From Botryllus schlosseri (taxonomy: Eukaryota): DNA of 64,000 nt. This document shows, piece by piece, positions 2,351 through 54,900 of this stretch (its first letter is position 1; each line of letters opens with the position of its first letter). Made by a program: the position numbers and the translations under genes. A model generated the notes under the pieces. The model did not search any database, was not told the origin of the DNA, and saw only the letters and a list, made by a program, of their open reading frames with translations. The DNA lies in contig CM119372.1 in NCBI GenBank assembly GCA_051294905.1, positions 9,736,001 to 9,800,000 of the forward strand, read 5' to 3'.

Positions 2351-3115
2351 ACTGTACCCGCTACTTCAGCATACTTCTACTCCAAACGAAATCCTTATCA
2401 CATAAATAGTGTACGCGGGGTCACGATCGAACCACACATAACTAAACTGAATGATTCGTAAAGGTACGGTGAACATATATATAGGCCTAGACCCCCAATC
2501 TCGTTTTGCGGATACAGAAATGTCTGTTGTATCACATATATCTAAAACTATGCCTTCTTGTATGCCTCAGTGTAGATCTTTACCTGGAGTAAAGGAGTCA
2601 CCCTTTGTAATGCGCAAACGCAATCAACAGTCAAGACGAACAACCACGCTCAGGATCAAAACTGTTCGTGCATGTGCAATTGTGCATTGTGCATTTACGC
2701 ATTAAATTCCAACAGAAGCTTGTCGTACGTGTTTGTCTACGAAGACCTAGGCAACAAAACCACCTAGCAGATCACTTCTGCTCTCAAAAACGACGAGAAT
2801 AGCGTGAACTAAAAGCCTGATCCTCGGCACGCTAATTCCCATCGCCCACAATAACTCGCATTGTCCAGATTGGTAAAATTTATAATTCTACAACGATTCA
2901 TATCCCGATACGCGCGCACGTTACAGAGCGACATATAGAAAAATTCAACATTCCCAGCACAAAATAGGGCGTAAAATAAGTGACGCAAGGCACACAATGC
3001 TGCGCGCGGAACAGAAAATTCCGCGGTACTGTATTCGGGCAAGCAGCGTCCAAGTCGATCGGCCGGTTTCCATATAAACATGAAAGAATACGAGTCCCAA
3101 TAGTGTATTATTACT

Positions 3116-3144
3116 TTAACCCATCAGAATTGACTTAATGAATG
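3116..3144 (-). CDS. Myosin light chain alternative C-terminal exon C3 (AFIKSILMG*)
   Basis: Strong acceptor TCTTTTTCCTTTTCAG, phase 1, 29 bp to the stop; homologous to ELC C-termini. Confidence 0.85.
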
Positions 3145-6100
3145 CTGAAAAGGAAAAAGAGAAACGGCGTTACTCGGGAGAAACTACGAGAGGAGGTGAC
3201 ATACGTGCATTCAGGCATGCATGCAAATCTCAAATCGGGCGAGCAAAACACTAGTATCATTTGTTGACTCGAGTCGAGCAGTGAGAGTTGATGTCTTCGA
3301 GAAACGAAACTACACGCCTTCAGATCAAGAATAATATTTCAAAGAAAAATATCATAGATTCAATACTGTACTAGAGCAACCAAATCTCGGCAAACCGTAG
3401 TTCACCAACGCATAACATATCGCACAATGCTACTAATATTCATAAGCGCCACGAAAATGCCATGTTCTAGAAATATCAAGTCTGACACTTGGCAGCGTCT
3501 TCGCAGTGGCCGAAAAAAGGCATATTTTAACCTATGAACTCATTATTGCTGTTATGGCATCATAAAAGGCGACACACGAATGCCCGCCGCTTAATACTCG
3601 AGTAGGAATCGAATCATTGAGACACTCGATGTTTGCCCAGCCCAGGGTTTTACATAATGATCTCATAGCGGTCAGTGGCTGACAAACAAGGCCGATACGA
3701 TGCAGTTAATGGCCACTCGCGACTGTAACGCCAGTCCAACCAGCCAGAACATGACCAAGCGCACAATAATATCACGAATGGATTTCGAGCCTGGCACATG
3801 CGCTTGACAGTTTGCAGAAGGGCTGTTCAAAAATAACTTTTTTTCTGGATTCCAGCCAGTCACTGATTAAATTGTCAGGTTACTCTATAAAACGCTGCAC
3901 ACCAAATTTGACTCAATCCCAACTCGTAGAGACGGAGTTATTTGAGTTTTTCGTTGGTAATTCTCGGATTATCCACCAATCAAGGGTAATCCGATAATTA
4001 TCAACGAAAAACTCAAATAACTCCGTTTCTACGAGTCGGAATTGAGTCAAATTTGTTTTGCATCGTCTTTGAAGACAGCTCAACAATTTCACGGGACTGA
4101 CAGAACAATTTGAATTTTTTTCCCAAATTTTTTCCTAATAGATTAAAAATTTTAATTCATCTGCGTTTTTTTAGGGTAACCTGACAATTTCATCAGTGAA
4201 TGGCTGGAATCCAGAAAAATAGTTTCGATCCAATTCATTCAAGCTAAAACGCTACGAAACTGTCAGACGCGCAGCAAAGTTGATTCCGGATGACAATCGT
4301 GCAGTAGGCTACATGCCCCGTCAGCGTCGAACATAGCTTAGCATGCACTGGATCAGATAGATTACAGACCGCATGACATAGAGCTTGTCCTATTCAGATT
4401 AGCGTGCGGCGCGCGCGGGTAAGTGTAGCTTTTAAAGGGGATATTAGATATAACTGATAAGAAAACCGGGAAGTAACGTAAAGCCGGGAAAGAAAGAATA
4501 AACAGAATCTCGTAAACGTAACCGGGCAACTAAAAACACGAGCCGCTAGCGAATTTGGTAACAAAACTCCTCATTGCAGATTCCATAAAAAAGTCGGGCA
4601 CATGTTCCCCTATCTCACGTACAAGCGCCGACAGTGCCTTCTTGCGGACGCGTCAATCAGTACGCCGGCAGTATCGTTTATCCGCTGCGAATCAATTTCG
4701 CGAGGTCTGCGCGTGACAAGCAATGACAATTAGCACGCTGGTGAGGTTTGAGTGTGACGCGACAGTGCGGGTTGACATGGCCGCGATGGGCGGCCGATAA
4801 CAATACGTACCGGGAAGAATCGAAGAAAGGCTTGGTGAGTGGGAAAGAAGAGAATTATCCTTCCAAGAGGTATTTGCTGAACTCTGACAGAGAAAGAATG
4901 AAGAGCGACTGACAGAATAATTCGCGAAGACAAGGTAAGCGGATCACACAGGCTCCGGACGACGGGCGCAGCCAAAACCAACTTACCGGTAGCTACTTTG
5001 GTACAGGGGTGGTCAAAGTAATGATTCTTGGCGCTCAAGTGCCAGTACAAGTAATGCTGTAAATCTATACTCAGTTGCAAGTAGTGATTTCCGAGATAAG
5101 TCAAAACTGCTTCAAGCGGAAGTAGAAAATCATGACCTGAAAGGTGCCATAGTGTTTTAAATGTAGCTTTGGCTGAGACGTCGCACACCTTAAGGGCGGA
5201 GATAATAAAGTTAGCTGATCCGGGAGAATACTAATCGTGTGATTAAAAACCGCTAATCGGGGCGCATTTTAGGCGGAGATAATTAAGTTAGCTGATCCGG
5301 AAGGACGCTAATCGTGTGATTAAATACTGCTAATCGCGACGCATAAATTAGGAAAAGGTTACGCGCGATGGTAAGTCGAGGTGTCCCGAGTTTTCAATCC
5401 AAGTGGCGTTATCTGTTGCATCATAATGCGAAAACGAGTTATAGGCTGTCAATTGTCAATTTGTTGAATGAAACAGCAGCCTGCTGATAACGATACTGCC
5501 ATTGTAATACGTAGAATTATCATCATCGCGAAATGAAAGCCCTGTCCAACTAGTACGGTACGGCTGAGAAACGGAATATAAAATATTGATAGCGCTCTGC
5601 AACGGTGGGTACAAAATTCGTAGATTGTTTAGTGAAGCCACTACCTAGGAGACAATCCACACGGTCGTTATCGGAAATATTTGTGCGTAGGAATGGTACG
5701 CATTGTACGCAGTTTTTTTCAACTAGTTATCTATAGTTTGTTCCGATTTGTTGAATCATGAGATTTGAACTAACTTAATGCGCGGCGATCAACCTGTTTC
5801 CTGGATCCTGGGTTGATAAATCCTGACGAACGCGATAATCGACTTTATTGCTAATTCAACTTTATTATCTCCGCCCTAAGTGGTCGATCGAAGTTGGCTA
5901 CTTTGAAATATTTGTTTCTTCGCGTCCAACGCAAAATGACAAATATATTCAGTTATCGCCATACAGGGGCAAATTCTTCTACTTTATCCATAATCTAACC
6001 ATAAACCCCAGGTGAAAATCAAAGTCTGCAAAGGACAACAACCTTCGTAAGTAACGCAAGTAGCTGAATCACACATCAGTCCCGAAAAATGTAGAGCTAC

Positions 6101-9100
6101 GTCGTTACTGACGCACTTTCCCTTTAATATTATGACGTCATCGACACACCACACGAAACGGGTATCCTGGAGTCGTGGATACAATTGAGTGCTGGCAACC
6201 CTCCTTTTTCCTACTACGCCGTCGCCCACGGCACGATCAAGAAATCGAAATTTCGGAAATCATGATCAATAGACAGCGCAAGCAATCGGAGGTGTCAAGA
6301 ACACCCAACAGTAATTACAATTCGCAGTCGCATTGCTACAGCATTCCAATTACAGCAAGCCCGAGATATTTACTCCGACAGCGCCAGCTCCTCGACATTC
6401 CTTATCCCTCCAGAACCGTTTTTACCAACACTACATGATAAAGAAACGAGATTCGTTCTCTCACAAAGCTCAAGTGGGCAAGCGATAAGAATTCCGAAGA
6501 AGCCTCTCGCCAGACGCCGACTCACCTTCGTAATTAATGCAACCGTTGGCGTCCTCTTGTCCTTGCAGCAGGTTTTCGACTTCTTCCTCTGACATTTTCT
6601 CGCCTGAAATATAACGCAAAAACGGGTTGCCAGAAACGCGAAGGCTACGCTAGGCTGACATACCGAGAGTGGAGAGGACGTGTCGCAGTTCGGCGCCGAG
6701 CACGGTGCCGTTGTTTTCTTTGTCGAAAACCCTGAGGCCTTCGACGAAGTCCTCGAACGAGCCGCGCTCCGTTTGCCTTTCGATTTGGGCGAGCATGGGC
6801 AAGAATTCGCTAAACGACACTTGTTTCGTCGAGAGCTCTGCAGGGACACGCGGAATGGATAATTACTCTCTGGGCCTAGGCGGGCGGAGTGCTATACAGT
6901 CATTGGATTCGGTGACGAGCGTGCTAAACCGATGACATGCAGTATACATGGGCTATGCCTGAATTCCAACTACCTAGATGTCACAGGGTGTAAACATCTC
7001 AAGGCTGGGCGCAATAATTCGAGGTTTACCAGAGAATTCCGCACCTGGCGACCACTGATCCTAACCATATTCCGAATACATTTATACATACATACATATT
7101 CGCTCATATTCCGTGAGACACTCATTTTCGAAATTTATTGCGACACTATCGACTCCTACCTTTCACAAGAATAATGGTTTTCTAATGACAAATTCGCGCA
7201 GTGCCGTACTCACTGTCAATTGATTCGACTACTGGAATCCGAAGCGAGTATGAATCGCAAAGAATACTCAATAATAAACTAGTTAGTAGTGACTATTTTT
7301 CCCCGAGTATAGTGAATGCCAGACACGGCCCTTGCGAATAGGCGTTACAAGATCAATTAGAATTTTAGTTTCGATGGCTTTCTCCCCGCCGCAGAAGCCT
7401 CGAAATCAAAAATCGGTTGCAACACAGTATCCAAAAAATCACAGCGCAAAGCTACGAACGTTAGCAGAAATGACATATCTGTAAAAGGTAGTGAGCAGTC
7501 CGCGACCTTCTGACAAAGCGCATCGAAACAGGCATAGTCGAAAAAACATCAACTTATCTTTAAGACGGTGCGTGACTTGGCTTGTTTTCTTTGCGCTCGG
7601 CTAAAAGGTACATATTTTGTCTTTGCTAATCGTAAACGTTGTCATGAATGAAGTAATAGTGAGTAACACTAGAACAGTCAAGTTAACTCGACGCCTAATA
7701 ACTCGATTCGGGTTATAATAATCGATTTTACTCGGGCCTGATGATGCACAAATTGATATTCGATTTCGTTCATAGCTCCAGCAAGACATACTTAGCCCCA
7801 GGAAAGGCCTACTTAGCGCATAGCGCCGTCGGGTATGGTCGTAACGAATGGCCCAACAGTATAAAAAACACCACGGCAGACATCAATCTATAAACACCAA
7901 TGCGCACACTTTACAGGCTAGGTATGAAGTAATGCAATATACCCTCCGGCGTGGGGTTGTTCAACACTTTGGCCACTTCCGCCTCGGTCGGATTCTGTCC
8001 CAACGCCCGGAACAGCGTCCCAACCATGTTCATTGCGATCTTGTCGTTGCCGGTGGTGTCCATCATGGCAAACGTCTCATGACAGTCTTTCGTGCATGCG
8101 AGCAGTGACAGTGAAGAGATGCGGGGTGATGTGCGTTCGTGTTCGCGAAAAGGATGGCGAATGTGCGTGAGGAAATAGCAAGGAACAAGAAAATTGAACA
8201 ACGTTACACGATATCAGAGGTGGTCATCTCATATTCATCGTTGGTACTCATGTAAAAAGTAATGTAAATTTCCACTCAAGTATCGATTTCCAAGTCAGTA
8301 ACGGTAGCGTAGTAGCCAAAACATCATCACCACTTGAACTGTTCGAGGCAAAATCTACTCCAGTCCTCCGAAAAAGTAGTACTTTCGTTACTGACCACAA
8401 AATCATAACCACTTGAAGATACTCTTGGAGGTATCAAACTTCAATATACAACTGAATAGTATATTCATATTGAAATAAACCCGAATATTTTCGGCCGACA
8501 CTCGTCTGCGGTAATCGTCAGCAACTAGTAAAGAATGTTCTTTCCGATTCTCCACTAGTTGCAGTCGATTACCCCTGACGAGTGTCAGTCGGATATTGTC
8601 GAGTATTTTTCAATATGAATGTGTCATTCAACTGTACAAGCACTCGAGGAATTATATCAGCTACATGGGTACTTCGAAAAAGTACAAGTACTTCGTCTGC
8701 ATGATATCAACAACCCATTTACCGTAACATAATTAATGGACAACGCACACATTCCGCGCTGTCGAATAGCGATCGTGACGAAAAATGAATCATGCCCCGG
8801 TGACGAGCGAACGTGCCACGCCGATTTCACGCAATACTTCACCCTCTTTTTTGGGGTTTCCGAGGACTTTGGACACGTCCGCGTTCGTGGGATTTTGACC
8901 GAGCGATCTTATGATATCGCCGACTTGATTCGCAAAAACCTTGCCGTCCGCGGCTCTGTCGAAGAGCTCGAAAGCCTCTTGACATTCTGACGCGTAAGCG
9001 AATATCAATGTTACAGTGCGTACGTGCGACTGTTGTACATATATGGTGTGTAGGAAACACGTCAGTGTAATAAAATAATGCCGTTGATTACTCCGCGCCG

Positions 9101-10979
9101 GAATACGGTGAATTAGTATTCAACGGACCTCTGTTGAAACAAACACGGCCAGTCTCGTAAACGAGAAGCCAATACCGAGAGTAGCTACTATGCGCTCCAC
9201 GCTTCAACGGCCGCGGCATACCAAATATGGAATGAGAGAGCCGAACGCGATCTCGGGAGCAAGGCTCAAAATGAGCAATTAAAGTAATCGGAATCATTGG
9301 TTGGGTACGATCGCGGACTAATGCGATTTTTTCCTAACCAAGGTCACAAATGTGATGATATGCGACCCTCATCAACTACTGAATATGTCAGCCGGCACCC
9401 TTAAGGCCTTACCTGCGATCCTGTCGTCACTGAAGTCAGCCTGCAGAAGAAATGCAGCATTTCAACGTTGATATATAAACCAACATTCTGTAATGGTACA
9501 GCACAAGATCCCAACACCGAATAGTTTCAAATTGTTCAAAAAATGAAATAAAATGAAATAAACACATTGTTAAAACTTTACTGCTATTGATGGTGTCCGA
9601 TTTTTTTGTCTGGCGAGGAATATGAATCACGTATACAACTGGCAAAAATAATCATAACTGGACTCTTCTAGGATATGGGTGGGCTTTTTTAGAAGGACAA
9701 AGAAAGGGCAAGGAAAATATTCTCAAGAACTGAGCAAATTATTGGACTGTAGAATTCAGATTCAATGCGACAAGTTCGATCAATTGATGCAATCACATCT
9801 GACAATTATGCTTTTGTATTGGGATGAGATAAGGAATCGAAGTTTGAGCACACAACCTAATAATTGTTGGCCATCAAAAAAATATTTGTTGGAATAGAAA
9901 AGACCGTCAGCAATTTGTAATTTATACTAGGCACCAATTTTTGTGCTATTTTGCAATAGTTGTTACTGATTAGATACTACAGAAACCATTTGAAGACCAA
10001 CGAGTACATTGTGCTTGGCCAGCTTGGTACATATGTATCCGCATAATGGTGGGGAACGGGAGCAGACTATCCTATTGTTATATAATATTAATTTGTCTAA
10101 TTGGTCTAACGGATCTAAATCACCAGGGCATAAATATTTAAGTTCACTCGGTAAACAGATAATTTTGAATACTTTCGCAACTTTGAGGGTTGGTAACTGA
10201 CTAATATCAATCTATTTTGTTGAACAGTGCATGCCAATCCCACGATGGTAGGTTACTGATGTTATTATCCTAAAGGGGCGTAAACATCACAAAGTCTGTA
10301 AGGATGTTAATACTCTAGTCGGCAATTTGAAAATAGTACTATCATTATTCTCGCCCGACTTGATGCCATTTTGTTGCTGGAAACTTTTTGCCTTATGGAA
10401 TTTTGTGTGATGAGCATAGAGATTGCATCTTTAATATCAGTGACGATGAACCATAAGGTACTTATACGATATCCCTCATATTTCAAATCCTTTTTATGAA
10501 AACTGATCCTCGACCAGCAAGCCATGCTTGAGTTTGTAATAATATTCATAAGCATGCATAGGCAATACGTTGCTCTCTTGTATATAATATCAAATTGCCG
10601 TTCAAGATAATCAAATAAGTGTTGAATAGTGAACATACAGAATATTTCAATGTTACAAGCCATTTTGAACTATATTTACAACTGTCATTCTATATTCTCA
10701 TTCACACACCACACTAATAATTATTCAGATATTTTATACCCAAAATATTCATACGGTTTATTATAGCCATACACAATGTTATCAACAACCTTGCTAATTT
10801 GCATTTAGAGCCATGCATGCACAAATTCACACTTTCGCCGGATGATAATAATTTAATACAATAGATCCCTTTGCATGCCCCATACCTATGATACAATTCG
10901 AAGACATCTGTTTTTTCAACAATTTATATCAATTCGAGATACCACAACTGCTGCTACATATAGAAGTCTGACTTACCAT
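3116..10979 (-). CDS. MYL6: Myosin essential (alkali) light chain, MYL6-like, alternatively spliced
   Basis: Exons: ATG 10977-10979; 9413-9440 (28 bp, ADFSDDRIA); 8843-8986 or 7943-8086 (144 bp); 6664-6837 (174 bp); 6526-6603 (78 bp); then 6402-6430, 4855-4883 or 3116-3144 (29 bp to the stop). All junctions are GT-AG and in phase. The motif [32 protein letters not shown] is present, and exon sizes match vertebrate MYL6 as recalled. Confidence 0.95.
3819..4225. mobile_element. Tc1/mariner-like palindromic MITE
   Basis: Starts AGGGCTGTTCAAAAA and has a long hairpin centred near 3980. Related copies at about 38040-38278 and 54813-55340. Confidence 0.6.
4855..4883 (-). CDS. Myosin light chain alternative C-terminal exon C2 (EFSKYLLEG*)
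   Basis: Acceptor CTTTCTCTGTCAG, phase 1, 29 bp to the stop, with a GTACGT donor after 4811. Same C-terminus as the Halocynthia smooth-muscle ELC as recalled. Confidence 0.9.
5194..5876. mobile_element. PIF/Harbinger-type MITE
   Basis: TIR GGGCGGAGATAATAAAGTT...AACTTTATTATCTCCGCCC flanked by TAA on both sides (5191-5193, 5877-5879); internal duplication of the left end. Confidence 0.85.
6402..6430 (-). CDS. Myosin light chain alternative C-terminal exon C1 (VLVKTVLEG*)
   Basis: First acceptor after the 78-bp exon, phase 1, 29 bp to the stop. Confidence 0.85.
6526..6603 (-). CDS. Myosin light chain constitutive exon (EF-hand 4 region)
   Basis: [29 protein letters not shown] and GTGAGT splice sites. 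Confidence 0.95.
6664..6837 (-). CDS. Myosin light chain constitutive exon (EF-hand 2-3 region)
   Basis: [61 protein letters not shown] and GTATGT splice sites. Confidence 0.95.
7943..8086 (-). CDS. Myosin light chain duplicated EF-hand-1 exon B
   Basis: [48 protein letters not shown]; 144 bp, phase 1-1, open frame, AAG and GTATAT splice sites. Confidence 0.85.
8445..8638. mobile_element. Hairpin MITE between the duplicated exons, inside a decayed CAGAGGTGGTC/AGTAGAAGT-family repeat
   Basis: Imperfect full-length inverted repeat (TATACAACTGAAT...ATTCAACTGTACA). A half copy at about 31795-31860 continues at 32126-32142. Confidence 0.65.
8843..8986 (-). CDS. Myosin light chain EF-hand-1 exon A
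   Basis: [48 protein letters not shown]; 144 bp, phase 1-1. Confidence 0.95.
9221..9234. promoter_or_regulatory. Intronic CArG box (SRF) overlapping an MCAT/TEAD-like site
   Basis: CCAAATATGG is a canonical CC(A/T)6GG and overlaps GGAATG, within an intron of a muscle gene. Confidence 0.45.
9413..9440 (-). CDS. Myosin light chain 28-bp exon 2
   Basis: [20 protein letters not shown] acceptor and GTAAGG donor. Confidence 0.92.
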
Positions 10980-11366
10980 ATTTCTATCGGTTTTAGGTAA
11001 TCCCACGAAAGATAATTTGCGGAGAAAGAATACACGCAACTACTCGGTCTACGACTTCTGGATCGGTATCTGATAACACGAAGCCTACGCTACGAAACGA
11101 AGTAAGTTTTCTCCTGGGAAAAAAGAACTTAGCCATTACAAACGATGGAACACAGTGTTCCCAATGTTCCAGTATCCTTTTTCATAAGAGACTAATTAAT
11201 GTGGTCATAACTTCGAATAGATTTTTTACACATAGGGTAATTGTTATCTATGTTTTGATAATACAAGTATTAAATTATTTCCCCTCTAAAGCTTGACTTG
11301 TTACGGATAATTTTTTCATCGGGCACATAGCCTACGCTTCGTCGATTTCTGTACTGGGTGGGTCTG

Positions 11367-11407
11367 CATTTGACGTCACTCATTGCAGACAGCTGCTAAA
11401 ACAGATG
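11367..11407. promoter_or_regulatory. CRE + E-box cluster upstream of the myosin light chain
   Basis: Palindromic TGACGTCA at 11371-11378, CAGCTG at 11390-11395 and CAGATG at 11402-11407, about 400 bp upstream of the ATG. Confidence 0.45.
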
Positions 11408-13582
11408 CCAGATTCAAGATGTAGCAACCATCGAGTCGGTCGCTATCGACTGCTGCTGCTTCATAGTCATATCACCGGACGAATTATGTATGGCTTTAAG
11501 ACCGCATATGTATGCTGATCTTTTCTATAATATTGATATATCGACGAAATGCGTAGGTGACATTTAACAGACTTTGCTCGCTTTTGTATTTGTGTATTTT
11601 TTGTTGAGAGAAATAAACGATTCTCTCTCCCTCTCTCTCATTGAAAAAAGACATATAATATTCCATTTGTAGCGTAGGTCTGTTTCCAAAAACTAAACAT
11701 TACTACATTGTAATGGGTACCCTTACAAATACACGGGATAGCCCATGACCAGCTCAAGTATCATCCGTTACCGTTACATGGAGTGCCTATGCCTATATTT
11801 GAATAACACTGATGAACCCTGTAGCCGCAATCTTTTGTCTGGAGAACATGCATGCTTAATTGCTTAAGCATAAAAGCCAGTGTAGTAATGCCTTTAATTT
11901 TCCAGAAATAGAGCTACACAATATGGCATTTTTACGATCTGCCATATTTTTTATTAACATTTACTAATCGCGCGAAGTGCTTACATCGTATCCGATACAA
12001 CGCCTCCGTATTGCTCTTCGACTAAACTACGGGCCTTATAATATGGGGAGGGTGCCATACCATGATATTTTCTAAAACGTGCTGTTCGAGTAAACAGGAT
12101 TAGTATGGCATTTCCACGTCAATACTCTCATTTTCATCCCATCATGCGGACGAACGCTTATGCTGTCGAAAATTGGATAGCTTCTGGTATGCATCAATAT
12201 GAATCAAGCTCTGCACCTTTCACATAGCTCAATTTGCAGCTTTTCACAATTCAGTGCGATCGAATTACGATCGTTTTCACAACTACTTACTTATATGAGT
12301 AGATTTAAAGTCAGTCAATTCTACTTCTACTTAAAGTAGTTTTAGGTTGCTTATGGAAGAATTACTTCTACTCGTACTTGAGTAGATTTTTTTCGTCGCT
12401 ACTTCTACTTCTACGTGAGTAGCTTTCTTCTACTTTGACCACCTCTGCTACTTCTACAACATTGTTTGAACAAGACAATCAATTTTTCGCATTTTTTTGA
12501 AATCATAGCAAGTGTAAAGGGTTTTTTGGTTAGATTTGTATTCTTTTTGTGGATGAAATCGCCACAACAACCGCGCAATCGCTTTTGAATCGGGCAAAGT
12601 TGGTCTACAACAACGTTTTCAATTCGGATTTAAATCTTGCCGCTTGATGGCACAGTGTGAATACTGCATGTTTTGTGACTTCCGTTTCATAAGACCAAAC
12701 TAAAGCGTTTTACATGGTTAATTCGAGTCTATAAATATTAATTCATGGCAATGCCAAAACTGCCAAAAATAAAATCTGAAAAAGTCTGAAAATAGCACGG
12801 CCTGCTGGGGATTGGGTGATGACCAGTGACCACCTGTGAGTATCGAAGCGTTCTGTATGAACCATCACAAATAGTTAGCTATCACGAACAGCATCACAAT
12901 CACAGCGTTATATTTTACCAGGGATCAAGTTGTTAACTGTGTCCCTGTATTTTAGCAGTGATTCCAATCGAGGCTCATCGCCTGAAGCTTTAAAACACTT
13001 TCCGTACGCCAGTCTACACGACTTCGATGCGGAGAAACGGGCTGGGCGTCGGGCTGATTTTCGAGGCCGACCTGCACACCACGGAGCACATCTTTCACTG
13101 GGTGCTTCAGGGAGTGTCTCACACTATACACTCGGACTAAGCGGACTCGGTTGAACCTTTGTTTATCCCAGACTGTGTGTTGTGTTTATCCCAGACTGTG
13201 CGTTGTTTGCTTTTGAATAAAAAGAAACTGCAGCATCAATATATTAACAATTTCACCATTTCAAAACACCACATGACTGCGATACGATGAAGATAGGAAG
13301 GTGTCGAATTGACTTAGAGAAGTCTTTGAAATCAGATTCCCACTTGTGCCTAAGCGATGTAAAAAAACCGCAAACACGGTGAATGAACTGTATAAGAACT
13401 GTACAAGAGGAGAATAAATGACGGGCGACATGACATATGAAATGACGGAAGGCGAGATCGATTAAGTCCGGTGATCGACTAGTATTCCTGCAGTAGAAAT
13501 TTCTTGTATTTCGACCTAAGAATGGGCTTCTATACTGCGTATGATCGCAGGAACTTGATCGCAAGAATGAAGTTCACTACGT

Positions 13583-13976
13583 TAGGCTTACCATATTTTG
13601 GAAATCTAAAAAGAGGACACTTTTTCAGAAATTTGAGACTTTCAAAAATCGGTGAATTTTTACTACTTTGTGAAAAAAATAAAAAAAGGTCAACTTTCCG
13701 CTCAGACATCAAAATACCGTTTTCCTCTCCACATTGCTAGGTGGTTGACTAAACAATAAAAGAAAAAGGTCAACTATTCGCTCAGAGCTTAAATCACCAT
13801 TTTTCACTCCGAAATACCCGCCGGAGCATCACTTCTGTGCTAAGTTACGGCATACCACTCGCATTTTGCTCTAAATGTGACCTAAATTTTCAAATGTGAC
13901 GTAAATTTTCAAAACAGAGGACAAAATCTCAAAAAAGAGGACAAATCCTCTTAAAAGAGGACGTTTGGTAACCGTA
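13583..13976. mobile_element. hAT-like MITE (TAGGCTTACCA...TGGTAACCGTA)
   Basis: Imperfect TIR with AAAAGAGGAC subterminal repeats. A related short copy lies at about 52763-52964. Confidence 0.65.
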
Positions 13977-14524: not shown

Positions 14525-16697
14525 TCAAAAACGTTTTTGCCCTGATCGAGCATACGCAAACGGAATCAATACTAGCAACGCTATTACAGTCGCCGCAATG
14601 AAGACCACCACGACAACATTGATCACGCCCACTCCAGGAGACTTATCTTCCTCAGTAGCTTCACGGAGCAGAGTCGCCGCAATGCGCGGGATCACATCGT
14701 CCAGATATTCATCCATACCGTTAATAGTAATTTGCCCTGAGCCATCGGAACCATTGAACACGAAAATTGGTCCGATCCAGGCCACGGGGGGTGCGCTACG
14801 TCTTACACGCGAAGATCGGCATTTTACGTTGTCGGCGGCAGGGGAGCATACCTGAGAATGTGAAATGTAATACGCAGATATCCGGACAAAGAAAATTATT
14901 ACGCTACCCACCTCTACATCGTCACTGGCACAGGACATCAACTCCGCGTGGATGTAGAATTCCGTGCATTGCAACGTACGTGGCGTTTGAAAGGAGACGC
15001 AGGCGATGTCCGATGTAAAGGACGAACGAATTTTCGACAGTAAGCCCGACTGGGCGGTGCATCCATCAACGACTATGTCAAGTACACTGCGGCTTGATTC
15101 GTCACCGGAACAAGACAAGTACATTTGAGCGATTCCGGTGTTCAGGGCCCCGGACTAAAACATAAGGGGGTAAGAAAATGATGGTGCCACACGTCCAGCC
15201 TATCACTTACGTCCAGCGACATGGTAACATGTATCAATTCACCCACAGTATAAGAGGCTCCTCCGCTAACCTTGTATATGTCCGGGCAACTACCAGGGCA
15301 AGTAGGGACCTTACACAAGGAAATAGTTGGGAAGATATCCTTCTTTGAAACCACCAAGCCTGGATTGCTGACTCTGCAATATAACCGGGAAACGTGATGT
15401 AGATATATCGATTGAAGGTACAAGGACACGAAAAAAGTATAAATCTTTTACACTGGTTGAAGCGATGTAACGAGCTCGTACACGCGACTGTACGTGCACT
15501 GAAACTCGACGGCGGGGATTGGCATGTCGAACATAGCGCTGCCAAGTTCTCGATTGAACCACATTTGGTTTGTGAATACGACGCCCTCTTCAGTTCGTCG
15601 CGACGTGGTGTTGCAGGCCGAGAACGGCAGGGGAATCGTCATCTCATACGCGCCGTTTGTTGGGAAATATACTGTTGAAAACTTCATTAAAATAAATTCA
15701 TGATCATAATAAATTCAGTTACATTTGCACGCCGAACGAGTGTGTTCATGGAGGCTGGGTGCTACCGATATGTAGCTATTCTTCATGCCCAGGTCGTATT
15801 CGTCGACGAAGTTTTCGGAGACGCTCAACACAATTTTGTCAGATTCGCACCGCAATACAGGAACAGCTTGATCGTAGCCACAAACATCAGTAATCATCGC
15901 CAACTGGAAAACAGCAAACGCCCAGGTACTCACGAACAGCGCAGTTCTTTCCCAGGTAACCGGTATCACTACGGCAGTAATAGCCACCAGCGTGCTTACA
16001 CGACTCGTAGCAGGAACAATCACCAACGCAGGGATTCGGGCTGCATGCGGATGGTGTCAAATCTGAATGGTAAGCGGGAGTTAGCATTTCCCGCCCATAT
16101 CCTGTCGACTTTATGCTTCTTACCTGCAAGACAGTTCGAACAATCGACTCCCCCGCAGCCGTCCGGGCATATGCATTGGTAGCTGGATTCCGATATTGTA
16201 ATGCATATTTGGTTTTCATGAGTACAAGGTCGAGTATCGCAAACGTTTCGGATCCGCCTAGCGTCTGTGACGATATGAAGCGTAAAGCTCACGTAATACA
16301 CCATTTTCATGGACATCAATCCTCTCACCTTGCAGGCAGTTGGAACAGTTGGCGCCTTGACAATCCGGGTGGCAGACACACTCGTAGTCAGTGTGGGATA
16401 ACGCATTACATACGTGGTTCACGTTCGGACAAGGCCGAGCATTGCAACTGGCATTACCACATTCACTAGAGCACACACAGCGATAGTCTGTCTCAGATAA
16501 GGGATGGCATTGTTGGTTACCATCGACGCACGGCCCAGTATCGCAAACGTTCGGTATTTCCTCGTCGGTAGCACCAGCCACGGCCAGAACGCAGCTCAAA
16601 GCGAGGAACCTGAATACACGTCTAATGTAGTCACATTTAGCGTTAACTCTGAAACGTCTTCTAGCTGTACTCACGGAAAGCAACATGTCAAAACCAT
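14525..16697 (-). CDS. EGF-like repeat + ZP-domain transmembrane protein, vitelline-coat (VC70/VC120-like) type, about 556 aa
   Basis: Nine in-phase GT-AG exons: 16675-16697, 16329-16609, 16124-16264, 15934-16062, 15723-15866, 15452-15671, 15211-15373, 14912-15154, 14525-14851. Signal peptide MVLTCCFPFLALSCVLAVAGA, 4 EGF-like modules, ZP cysteine pattern (VEFQCTY, IVVDGC, VSFQTP), RVRR furin site, GPIFV external hydrophobic patch, TM and short basic tail. Confidence 0.9.
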
Positions 16698-17494
16698 TCT
16701 TTATCGAACGCAAAACAAATTCCAACAGAAGCAAAACCCAGATTCTAACTCCAAACCAACTGACAGCTTCATTTTATATTCCCGAGTGATCTCGCGCAGT
16801 CTGAAGCGACTGATTGCTTGATCACTTCTTATTATCATCTCGGGAAATCCATCAAGTATTTGGATGATTTTATAAGTTAGGTAGGTTTGAGACTGGACAA
16901 AAAGCAATTACCCTATGATTAGGGATATCTAGATACTCCTGCATATATGATCAGGACGGAATACAAGGAAAGCATGGCTCTATCAAGTATGCCGGAAAGT
17001 GACGTACAGTGAGGTTCATGGTTGATGAGGCACCGAACGTTATAGTCAGATTTACAAATATATGAACCCAAAATGGTAGCGACTTGTTTCTGATCACGAT
17101 TCCCACGCAGTAGGTGTAGGTAGATGGAAAATACATTACAGACATATCTGTAATTGGAATGCATTTTTCAGCACTGCTTGTTGGCCGTCGCTTCACGATT
17201 CATACTACACCGTCGATGGCGCATTGTACAAATGTGCCGTGATTGTCGGATTGTTAGCTGACAGTAATGAGTGAGGCTCATCCATCTGTGCTTCACACTC
17301 ACATTGTCATCGTTTGTGGGCGCCATGATCGTACGTAACAATGCCGAGGTCCACACATTCCTGGGCGATTTTGCGGGGGTTCTGGTGTTCTGACGTTATT
17401 ATTATTTATATTTTCGGAATCAGTGCGACAATAGGATTCGATTAATACCAGTTATTACACATTCTGAGTTGGTTATGGGGCCATTCCAAACATG

Positions 17495-17663
17495 CAGGGC
17501 CGTAACAGCACTTCGTCAGGCCCCCCTAAAACGTTGGTCTTGGGCCCCCCATACGGTGATAAACCGAACATCTGGGGGGCGAAACCACGAAATAATTTTG
17601 GGCCCCCTTCGAGCTCGGGCCCCCCCCAATTGGGGGGTTTGGGGTGCGGCAGTTACGGTGCTG
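17495..17663. mobile_element. 169-bp hAT MITE, deletion derivative of the 47824-51518 family
   Basis: TIR CAGGGCCGTAAC...GTTACGGTGCTG with a perfect 8-bp TSD CAAACATG. Confidence 0.9.
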
Positions 17664-17864
17664 CAAACATGGACAATCAAAGTGGGAACCACCACACTTT
17701 CAATATTTTTGAGATTTGGTACATGCATGGATGAGCAAATTCCGAACACAATAAACTTAATTCGAGGAAAATTGAACTCATGGATCAAAAGTTTCGTCAT
17801 TTTGAAAATCGACAATTTTCTGCTCATTTTGGACCTGCAGCTATCAGATTTTATCAATGTACCG

Positions 17865-18133
17865 AGCGAGATAGTGTAATGGTTATGGTTATGCGTCCGG
17901 CTTCTCGATCGGTAGGTCATGGGTTCGATCCCCGGCCGGGTCATACTAAAGACGCGAAAATTGGTATCCGCAGCTATCCTGCTATAGGCGCTCAGCAATC
18001 ACGGATAGGATGGAGGAGAGAAAAAAACGGGGCCGCAGACTAGATGACCTCACGGCCGTATCACAACTCCGTCGTCGAAGCATCTCGATGGTGCAGGCGA
18101 AAAATAATATCATATCTCTCTCTCTCTCTCTCT
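17865..18133 (+). mobile_element. tRNA-derived SINE family 1 with (CT)n tail
   Basis: A-box TAGTGTAATGG, B-box GGTTCGATCCC, core GTCATACTAAAGAC...GCGCTCAGCA; homologous to 760-1014. Confidence 0.85.
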
Positions 18134-51917: not shown

Positions 51918-54900
51918 TTACACTCCAGTCGCCTCACGTGTTGATGTGCTAGTTACCACTCGTGATCCGGCATTCTCGGTTCTCTCACACCCTTTACAAT
52001 CTTTACATGTATTGTTCAGGTACTGTTTTGTGTACCTTCGCATTTTCGACGAGCTTATGTTGTAAAACACCGGATTCATGCACTCGGAAAACCTCAGGCA
52101 AAAATACTGACAAAGCCCAAACCAGTAGTCGACTACCGGGCCAGCGTCCGTCTGTGTTGCCCAAAGCTCGTAGGCTGCAAGGTAACGAAAGTAGATTGAA
52201 TCATCGCAACACACGCTACACGCATTTTAAGCACATGCTTACTGACGAATGGAAGATATCCGAATATGAAGGAGCACACTATGAGGACGAGTTGCAAAAC
52301 GGCTTGCTTCTCTTTGCGCACTCTTCTTTTGATGGCCGCGTCTTCAGTCATAGTCGAAGACTTGGTGTGCTTGTGCACCGACCCACAGATCAACACAGAT
52401 ACAATCGCAATCGCGAACATCGGTAATAGGATGAAAATATTGTAGCTCGACAAAGAGAACTTCTTGTAGTTTTCAATTCTGTCAGATATACGAATAGAAA
52501 CGATCGGGGAGTATAGCGCAATATAGAAATCGGTCGCCCTTTTGTTACAGAGGTGGAAGTTTACGACCGCTTATTACGGGATTGGGATTCCAACCAAGTA
52601 TACTTGTCTGGCTCCGTTTTCCATTTCAAAAGTCACATTAGTTGTAACACATTGAAAAATATGCATTGAAAATCAATCTTACATATTAATTGTCAGGATT
52701 ATAGGCGTAATACACCCAGTGTATAATATACGTTGGTCACAGCAGGAACAATGCAGTAAATGTAGAGTTACCATATGCCCACCTTTAGAAATGTTTGTCC
52801 TCACTTTTCATGAAATCGAAAATGTCCCTTTTTTCTTGTTTCTAGTCAACACAACAAGATTACCAGTAAATATTTCAAAATCAGCCGTTTTAATTTAGTT
52901 AAACTAACTTTTATGATTTGATAAAAGTGTCATCCTTTCCCGATTTCGAAGTATGGTAACCTTAAGTAATGGGCATTTTTAAAAACTAATATTCATCTTT
53001 CTTATTTCATATGCGGCGTCACTGTATCTGTGATCCCATAAAAATTTATATAATGGCAAATGCGCCTTGATTATACGCTTACAATCGCCTTCAAAATTAT
53101 CATGCCAACCATTCGACAGGTCATGATAATTTGGGAATGCGCAGTTAGAAATTTGAGCTGTGAAATTAATCCTCGATTGCTGTTGACTTGCCAAGACAAC
53201 AAATGACGTCACAATATCAAATTTCCAACTGGAGGATAAATAGTGAGTTTCGTCCTTTGGAGATGCCGCATTCGTTTCGATTTCCTTGATTACAACAGTG
53301 GTTGATGGAAGCAAGTCCGACTGTGTTCTTAGATGCTTTTGATAAACGGTTTGGTACCAAGCCGGCATGATATTCGTAGCGACATTCTATTTCAGAATTT
53401 CGGTTAATCGCAAAGCGACATTTTCAAGGAGGTAGGAAGTTCTTAGGTTTCATCGCTCACTCCATAAAGTTAACTAGAAGTAGGCTACAACCCTTACGTT
53501 GCAAGCAGCACGGTGCAAGCTGGCCATCTGGCGTTCGGTTCACCGCTGTATCGATCCCTCTTGACGCCGGGGTCTGCTCCGGTGAATAACCACATAGTAA
53601 CGAACCCGCACAGGAACGCAATGACCCATATTGTCAAGACCCACAGCTGAAAGAGCAGCGAATCACTAGCACACATCACTACATTGCAGCATTCATTCGT
53701 TTAATTATATATCGATATTAGCCAATCAACCATTAATCCATCCAGATCCACCCAATCCTTCTTACTCCATGAATTTTGTAGTGATAGCAGATCCATATAG
53801 ATATGTTCTAATCACACAAAGTTAATATCATCAACGACGAACAAGCTACGTGGAAATAGGAGGCTCAACAGCACGTGCCTATACGTTGTTTGCACTTTGC
53901 GTTGGTTAATTTACGGTATTAGGTCACATGGAAAGGTGATTACAATTACATGCATTGAAACCGCACCAAGATTGGTTCCTCTGTTCTGCTATAGTTAGGT
54001 TTGTAATCTATAGCTCTATACTGTCTTGATTGGATGGAATTATATAATCTAACGATTGTATAATTATTATTGCCCGCGCATACGCAATCAATTTCGCAGC
54101 CCACTCTATACTGCCCTTGGTTACCGTCGTAGTATTCATGTCTCGTGCTGTGTTGAGTTGCACTCTACGTATAACTCACGGCGAACGGAGTGTCCGTAAC
54201 TCCGCCGCGGCATACGTTAATAAATATCTGAAACCATGTTTGTTGCATTTGGGAATCAGGCGCGTAACCCGTAGAGCTGGCGTGGACCGGAGCCGAATTG
54301 GATATACGGCCGGATATTTTTCATTTTTGGCCGGAGCCGGTTCGGAGCCTAATCAGTACTTTTCTCTAAGAAAAGGACAGCCTTACCCTCTTCAACCCTC
54401 CAATCAATAGTTAAAGTGAAACGTTCATGGATATAAACCACATGCTAAGTCCAAGTTGGCATAATTACTCCAGATAAGGGTTGGCCTTGATATTCGAGTT
54501 TTTAATTTCCAGTTTGCATTGTTTAAATCAATATTCAAGACTATTATGTGAGTAGAAAATTAATATCGGAGTTTTTCGGACCGGGTCACGGTCATATCTA
54601 GAATCCGACCTAGGAGTAGGACCGGATTCGGACCAGAGCTTTAAAAACAGGATTGGAGTAGGACCAGAGAATTTGTCGATCCGCCCGGCACTAGTAGCCA
54701 GCCGAAAAAATAGACGGGGTTTAAAAAGGGAGGGGTTAGGATTTTTTCAAATGGACCAATACAAGCATCAATTCATTAGGGTTAAGTACATGCGAAAATT
54801 ACGACTATGCAATAGGGCTCTTCAAAAATTACTTTTTTTCTCAAATCGCAATGGCTACTTGATAAAATTGTTAGGTTACCTAATTTAAGCCTACGCACCA

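Follow-up and report, generated by a model that had tools for sequence, protein, structure and literature searches.

The vertebrate MYL1 gene (MLC1F/MLC3F) contains the mutually exclusive exons 3 and 4, which are tied to two promoters and encode the N-terminal extension of this myosin essential light chain. The vertebrate MYL6 gene has an alternative exon 6 in smooth-muscle and non-muscle forms, and Drosophila Mlc1 has an alternative C-terminal exon. Among muscle genes, tropomyosin carries tandem-duplicated mutually exclusive exons. Clusters of such exons are also described for arthropod Mhc in PMC2257972, and the alternatively spliced troponin I of ascidians, treated in PMC6589888, offers a further case for comparison. 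Here we describe a myosin essential light chain gene of the ascidian Botryllus schlosseri with two homologous exons, A and B, for the EF-hand-1 segment, of which each mRNA contains one. The gene was found on the minus strand in 4800-13500 of a 64,000-nucleotide (nt) stretch of DNA (hereafter the window; assembly GCA_051294905.1, contig CM119372.1, positions 9,736,001 to 9,800,000), as determined by direct reading of the sequence. All coordinates are those of the window, and all exons and sites of the gene given below are on its minus strand. Like MYL1, this is an essential light chain gene with mutually exclusive exons near the 5' end; however, the MYL1 exons are short, unrelated and do not encode an EF-hand, whereas here they are homologous duplicates which share a common exon 1 and exon 2. 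Like MYL6 and Drosophila Mlc1, the gene has alternative nine-residue C-termini, but here the C-terminal choice is a second module, separate from the A/B pair. As in the Mhc and tropomyosin clusters, the alternative exons are homologous and match in length and phase, each mRNA takes one of them, and one gene does the work that vertebrates leave to gene families. The difference is that another protein is involved, and that steric hindrance and frame-shift decay appear to be excluded.

The initial annotation, made from the sequence alone, had reported two homologous 144-nt exons in phase 1-1, flanked by AG and GT and 756 nt apart, and the direct reading of the sequence confirmed this. Exon A (8843..8986, 144 nt) is the A-type EF-hand-1 alternative, which is nearest to vertebrate MYL6/MYL1. 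It is followed by intron A-B (8087..8842, 756 nt) and by exon B (7943..8086, 144 nt), the B-type alternative. Each exon has AG upstream and GT downstream, two leading bases completing a codon and one trailing base. The in-frame 47-residue translations (8844-8984 for exon A and 7944-8084 for exon B, both on the minus strand) are identical in 23 of 47 residues (49%), and the exons themselves in 82 of 144 bases (57%). When exon B was searched in six frames against the 495.5-Mb assembly of the organism itself, exon A came up at E = 2.2e-8 with 48% identity, and no second B-type exon was revealed in the assembly. The similarity of A and B is therefore far beyond chance.

The use of the two exons was assessed with reads and contigs placed on window 5600-13600. 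The raw reads came from a single RNA-seq run that carries the species label of the window (X23, of which about 6% was read, with 8,555 reads placed), and its counts are the sums of both mate orientations. The junction counts proposed in the initial annotation (9413>8986, 9413>8086, 8843>6837 and 7943>6837) were obtained in this run, and it turned out that the reads use the very flanking coordinates it had given, 9413 and 6837. Exon 2 was joined to exon A (8986>9413) in 224 reads and to exon B (8086>9413) in 273 reads. Downstream, exon A was joined to exon 4 (6837>8843) in 336 reads, and exon B (6837>7943) in 280 reads. The joints leading into exon 4 through A and B thus amount to 616 reads, compared to 620 reads at the constitutive joint of exon 4 and exon 5 (6603>6664; reported as 6602>6663, cut +1), which leaves scant room for skipping of both A and B. 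Exon A accounted for a share of 0.45 of the upstream joints and 0.55 of the downstream ones. Since co-inclusion would make the upstream share of A the larger one, there is no sign of co-inclusion, within about 10%. Among the best 15 of 40 joints, there was neither an A-B joint (8086>8843) nor a joint skipping both exons (6837>9413). Thus, exons A and B are used mutually exclusively, one copy per mRNA, and in about equal amounts in this bulk sample, as the initial annotation had supposed. Exon B is present in about half of the X23 transcripts. Each exon joins exon 2 and exon 4 directly, so A and B are not always co-included. In the two resulting light chains, about half of the residues differ within one third of the protein.

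Contig runs were compared as well. X1, X2 and X5 are contig runs guessed to be RNA, in which the absence of a sequence from the contigs proves nothing. X5 contained two 199-nt contigs, one for each alternative exon, with flanks of 29 and 26 letters. Their depths were 840.8 (A) and 508.1 (B), and joints of matching depth connected each exon to exon 2 and exon 4, as would be expected if the two exons exclude each other. The ratio of A to B joint depths was 941:1145 in X1 and 841:508 in X5, and only B was present in X2, at 2047. This hints that the relative use of A and B depends on the sample.

Both the closest named proteins and the more distant matches bear out the initial assignment of the gene to the tunicate myosin essential light chains. 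The closest named proteins are isoforms of Styela clava, which are 87-93% identical per exon. Exon A and exon 4 match MYL6, MYL6B, MYL1, MYL3, MYL4 and ascidian catalytic light chains. The best solved relatives of exon B are also essential light chains (E from 1.9e-12 to 2.5e-10), which come before calmodulin (3.8e-9). Along its full length, the sequence resembles essential light chains more than calmodulin or troponin C. The Styela orthologues P0002 and P0015 pass the Pfam EF-hand pair family PF13499 in the C-lobe with 47.3 and 44.5 bits (cut-off 30). Judged by its sequence, the gene encodes an essential (alkali) light chain of myosin of the MYL6/MYL1 type in a stolidobranch ascidian, and the product is predicted to bind the first IQ motif of a myosin II heavy chain. 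According to the alignment to solved light chains, the duplicated exon spans the split codon and 47 residues, approximately residues 11-58 of about 151. The encoded segment takes in helix A, the loop of EF-hand 1, helix B and the linker that leads to helix C.

The pair is not restricted to B. schlosseri. A-type and B-type isoforms of the orthologous gene are present in RefSeq/UniProt for Styela clava, Ciona intestinalis, C. savignyi and Clavelina lepadiformis. In Styela clava, the A-type isoform is XP_039266962, and the B-type isoforms are XP_039266960, 61 and 65. In the Styela cluster, the B-type isoforms end in three different C-termini; there are also one A-type isoform and one 103-residue model that skips both exons. 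The exon B query found the Styela clava 'myosin catalytic light chain, smooth muscle-like' (P0002) with 89% identity and the genomic open reading frame (ORF) P0001 with 91%, and the exon A query found the other isoform of the same Styela gene (P0015) with 87%. The relevant records are the Styela clava 'smooth muscle-like' isoforms X1-X5, the Ciona intestinalis 'myosin light chain 3, skeletal muscle isoform' X3/X5/X6/X7, Clavelina lepadiformis X3/X6/X7 and C. savignyi H2Y9S0/H2Y9S1. They represent the same gene, with an A or B segment of 47-48 residues in the same place and with the same kinds of C-termini. However, these are automatic models, whereas here the junctions were counted on reads in another species. 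In the A form of Ciona and Clavelina, the loop is one residue shorter than in window A. With the constitutive exon 4 as the query, the Ciona, Clavelina, Halocynthia and Molgula records were added. For Halocynthia roretzi and Molgula tectiformis, one record each was retrieved, of A type only and of B type only, respectively. The two MYL6-like isoforms of lamprey that were retrieved share one EF-hand-1 segment, without an alternative.

Window A is 63-87% identical to the A segments of five other ascidians and 40-51% identical to B segments. For window B, the identity is 55-91% with nine B segments and 47-52% with A segments. In 8 of the 47 columns (4, 6, 11, 17, 20, 42, 45 and 46), the residue sets of A and B are disjoint. 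In the maximum-likelihood tree of the 47 columns, from which the truncated row Logan141 was left out, A and B were split on one branch (support 72/83, 84% of bootstraps). A HMMER search of the representatives with exon B also revealed further B-type genomic ORFs (P0211, P0216 and P0225) and light chains with 'VLNNP' (P0213, P0215 and P0221). In P0216, the frame-shifted end of an A exon is followed by about 90 codons and then by a Ciona-like B exon, which indicates that the A-then-B order is shared. The off-frame ORF 8657..8908 of the window itself is comparable to this frame-shifted end of an A exon, with which P0216 starts. Compared to Styela clava, 41 of 47 residues of A, 42 of 47 of B and 53 of 57 of exon 4 are identical. 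Compared to Ciona, the values are 30 of 46 for A and 30 of 47 for B. In P0001, exon B is identical to the window in 43 of 47 residues, and the in-frame intron residues on either side are mostly different. The similar values for both exons in Styela and Ciona, together with this contrast in P0001, suggest that A and B are equally constrained.

Taken over these comparisons, the pair most likely arose by one duplication before the split of the stolidobranch from the phlebobranch and aplousobranch ascidians. The B exons of the stolidobranchs and those of Ciona and Clavelina could instead have been duplicated independently. Once vertebrate and tardigrade rows are included, the stolidobranch and the phlebobranch/aplousobranch B exons form no supported clade, so that B is not one resolved clade in a tree of such short segments. 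In addition, Asn at column 42 (as in 'VLNNP') occurs in the non-B sequences P0213, P0215 and P0221 and in shark MLC3. However, to hold B as one clade costs only 1.4 log-likelihood units (AU, approximately unbiased, test p 0.417), so that a single B clade is neither rejected nor shown. The eight type-specific columns, the same exon size and phase and the same A-then-B order in P0216 speak against separate origins, and window B is nearer to every B exon than to any A exon. We therefore consider independent duplications improbable. It is hardly credible that exon B is a decaying or noisy duplicate included without a function. Its splice sites could suggest this, since purines stand directly before the 3' AG and the 5' site GTATAT appears weaker than that of exon A. 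However, exon B is included about as often as exon A in X23, its frame is open, with 89-91% identity to Styela clava and P0001, and four further ascidians from three orders have it. An artefact of the assembly or of haplotypes was ruled out, because the copies are just 57% identical in DNA and both types are present in other species. A single old duplication thus stays the preferred origin of the pair.

How the choice of one exon is enforced can be narrowed down. Exons of 144 nt keep the frame under double inclusion and under double skipping. Nonsense-mediated decay therefore cannot enforce exclusivity, and the need for active regulation that the initial annotation had deduced from the frame and the long intron is a fair inference. 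Frame-shift with decay as a mode of enforcement was rejected on these grounds, and steric hindrance was rejected because the 756-nt intron is too long. The splice-site pairs of both exons are GT-AG. Splicing regulators that act in trans may set the choice in each cell type. Rbfox proteins follow a position rule: a site upstream represses an exon and a site downstream enhances it. A GCATG motif is located at 8095..8099, 9-13 nt upstream of exon B, between the pyrimidine tract and the AG, and would be a candidate repressor site of Rbfox type. Another one is located at 8791..8795, 48-52 nt downstream of exon A, and would be a candidate enhancer site. Such a scheme would have exon B repressed through a GCAUG that lies in its own 3' splice site, and exon A enhanced through a GCAUG located downstream of it. 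The window contains 128 GCATG motifs against 129 expected by chance, and only the position of the two is suggestive. The sole hint of conservation is that the in-frame intron translation of P0001 has the residues 'AC' at the place matching the GCATG site. A switch of Rbfox type, turning Rbfox-expressing cells such as muscle to A, is therefore put forward as a rather doubtful candidate.

It is improbable that exclusivity depends on competing RNA base-pairing of a docking site with selectors, as in insect Dscam, 14-3-3 xi or Mhc, instead of on cell-type-specific proteins. Immediately upstream of exon A, 17 nt (8993-9009) are indeed 88% complementary to 7752-7768 in the intron after B, and 15 nt that overlap with them (8997-9011) are 87% complementary to 7090-7104. 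However, by a rough estimate, chance alone would give about 0.3 to 1 matches of such size in 2.9 kb. Pairing that spans both exons would loop out A and B together and lead to double skipping, which was not seen in the reads. The search for complementarity between the introns found no selector beside exon B. Regulation by cell-type-specific proteins, of the Rbfox or another type, is preferred here over such pairing. A similar weighing applies to the function of the exchange. In the scallop essential light chain, EF-hand 1 is the regulatory Ca2+ site, and the exon described here encodes the same structural element of the same protein. The initial annotation suggested that splicing could change metal binding, so that A and B would differ in Ca2+/Mg2+ binding at EF-hand 1, as in molluscan myosin. 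The exon does encode the entire EF-hand-1 loop, the loops of A and B differ strongly, and the B-type loops of Ciona and Clavelina retain Glu at loop position 12. We compared 21 full-length EF-hand-1 segments (a 22nd, truncated row has no loop) with the canonical EF-loop pattern of PROSITE. No fit was found in window A, in window B or in any of the 21 segments; the comparison covers the canonical pattern, with ligands of the scallop type outside it. In Pfam, exon A alone reached 19.2 bits against a cut-off of 25 (EF-hand_6), and exon B alone gave no EF-hand match. In this species, the A loop has Ala at position 3 and Gln at position 12, and the B loop has Thr and Met. Met also occupies position 12 in the stolidobranch B exons. 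The position-12 Glu is thus not kept in stolidobranch B, and metal binding is no conserved property of the B type. The suggestion of the initial annotation was not borne out in this respect, since neither loop is canonical and neither exon reaches the Pfam EF-hand cut-off. A metal switch between A and B appears unlikely.

We favour the idea that A and B tune the N-lobe for different partners; the initial annotation had likewise raised a possible change in heavy-chain preference. The N-lobe of the essential light chain lies on the C-terminal part of the first IQ motif and adjoins the regulatory light chain. The two forms could adapt the N-lobe, placed on the heavy-chain lever arm beside the regulatory light chain, to different myosin II heavy chains and regulatory light chains. 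The Halocynthia roretzi 'myosin catalytic light chain, smooth muscle' (P0100) is of A type, and its last nine residues are those of the type-2 C-terminus of the window. A may be the form of body-wall ('smooth') muscle, and B may serve other cells. Together with two to three alternative C-terminal exons, the A/B choice might allow one gene to supply the diversity that vertebrates obtain from separate MYL genes.

We consider it very probable that the explanation as a whole is correct, namely an old tandem duplication and exclusive use of the two exons, with a proposed tuning to different partners. Several points weigh against it, in addition to the unresolved B clade. The raw-read evidence comes from one run only, with the tissue not recorded. 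As the joints are the best 15 of 40, low-level co-inclusion or skipping may occur. For Styela clava, RefSeq models a 103-residue form that skips both exons (P0091, XP_039266964). The finding of B only in X2 is a weak sign of dependence on the sample. There are at least two further light-chain paralogues, so the gene need not serve all myosins. The number of GCATG motifs in the window is that expected by chance, and the assignment to tissues, the idea of different partners and the Rbfox idea are inferences.

The two exons are embedded in a gene whose other parts are common to both forms. Exon 1 (10977..11084; the 5' limit is approximate) contains the 5' untranslated region, which ends in the ATG (10979..10977) and is followed by GT. 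The joint of exon 1 and exon 2 (9440>10977; reported as 9439>10976, cut +1) was found in 469 X23 reads, and the depth there is restricted to the bin 10940-11206. An X5 contig extends 5' of exon 1 (window ~11078-11084) into 30 letters that are absent from window 5600-13600. The gene probably has another non-coding exon on its 5' side, either upstream of 13600 or in some other place. Exon 2 (9413..9440) is constitutive and has a length of 28 nt. It encodes ADFSDDRIA and the first base of the split codon, and it has joints to 10977, 8986 and 8086. Exon 4 (6664..6837, 174 nt) is constitutive, encodes EF-hand 2 and the beginning of EF-hand 3, and is 93% identical to Styela clava. Exon 5 (6526..6603, 78 nt) is constitutive as well.

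Downstream of exon 5, the transcripts diverge again. The C-terminal exon of type 1 (6374..6430) encodes VLVKTVLEG followed by a stop; its 3' end is tentatively placed at a GT, and the exon may be a cassette or a terminal one. The joint 6430>6526 was found in 106 X23 reads, with a depth of 108 at 6377. The major form in X23 is type 2, whose C-terminal exon starts at 4854..4883 and encodes EFSKYLLEG followed by a stop. In this run, 667 reads leave exon 5 at 6526. Their loose-end consensus (agreement 0.68) was matched by eye, as its reverse complement, to window 4883..4854. A candidate C-terminal exon of type 3 (3115..3144) encodes AFIKSILMG followed by a stop and has a strong pyrimidine tract upstream. 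This terminus resembles the third C-terminus of Styela clava P0092 and that of Ciona and Clavelina isoforms. The C-termini of the Styela clava, Ciona and Clavelina isoforms are of three types, to which VLVKTVLEG, EFSKYLLEG and AFIKSILMG correspond. One more candidate C-terminal exon (4677..4706) encodes DLAKLIRSG.

Two tandem essential light chain paralogues are located about 7.7 Mb away on the same contig (C2:17443298-17456281; loci L002, L003, L010 and L011). Their exon 4 is 53-57% identical to exon 4 of the window, and each contains a single EF-hand-1 exon, of a separate type, without a B-type copy. Intron A-B contains an inverted repeat (8447-8536 and 8547-8636), with 90-nt arms that are 77% complementary and a 10-nt spacer. 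Its word depth was very high in all three contig runs, with up to ~17,000 (bin 8270-8536), and ~180x in X23. This very high word depth points to a multi-copy element that resembles a miniature inverted-repeat transposable element. Some contigs link the inverted repeat to 13290-13298. Upstream of exon 1, window 11741-12541 is a second repeated stretch, probably a dispersed repeat as well. Its word depth reaches 6,858, the reads show many fixed differences from it, and short TAGAAGTAG-like units are abundant in it. Neither Rfam families nor tRNA genes were found anywhere in the window. Of the eight long ORFs listed in the window, the six that were compared with Pfam, with 157-209 codons (14525-17998 and 51953-52426), gave no match.

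The initial annotation stated that no description of such a pair was known, but A-type and B-type isoforms exist in RefSeq/UniProt for four other ascidians. In the literature searched, including the available parts of PMC7397655, PMC6589888 and bioRxiv 10.1101/2024.12.24.630263, alternative EF-hand-1 exons in an essential light chain are not described. The survey of Ciona muscle genes by Chiba et al. 2003, which is outside this coverage, may mention them. Thus, the pair is not new to databases, but it is real, expressed and conserved in ascidians. For annotation, this means that real splicing underlies the isoforms modelled automatically for the orthologous genes of Styela, Ciona and Clavelina. 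Beside troponin I, this is another tunicate case in which the diversity of a muscle protein is obtained by splicing and not by gene duplication.

Essential light chains give stiffness to the lever arm of myosin, and human cardiomyopathies are caused by mutations of their N-lobe. To our knowledge, little is known about the contribution of the degenerate first EF-hand. Ascidians keep two versions of this very element in one gene across three orders, and both are highly expressed. With just eight type-specific positions between them, the natural variants provide a compact system for the function of the N-lobe. As a tentative possibility, A and B could be an ancestral ascidian device that fits one light chain gene to different myosin II motors. 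The device would be set by position-dependent GCAUG sites of Rbfox type, and it would combine freely with three C-termini to give up to six light chains. The partners could be, with the same reserve, sarcomeric-type heavy chains of the body wall or heart for one form and non-muscle myosin for the other. If this is true, the A/B pair would be a splicing-level counterpart of the vertebrate split of MYL1/3/4 and MYL6/6B, and a natural experiment on the share of the N-lobe in the mechanics of the lever arm.

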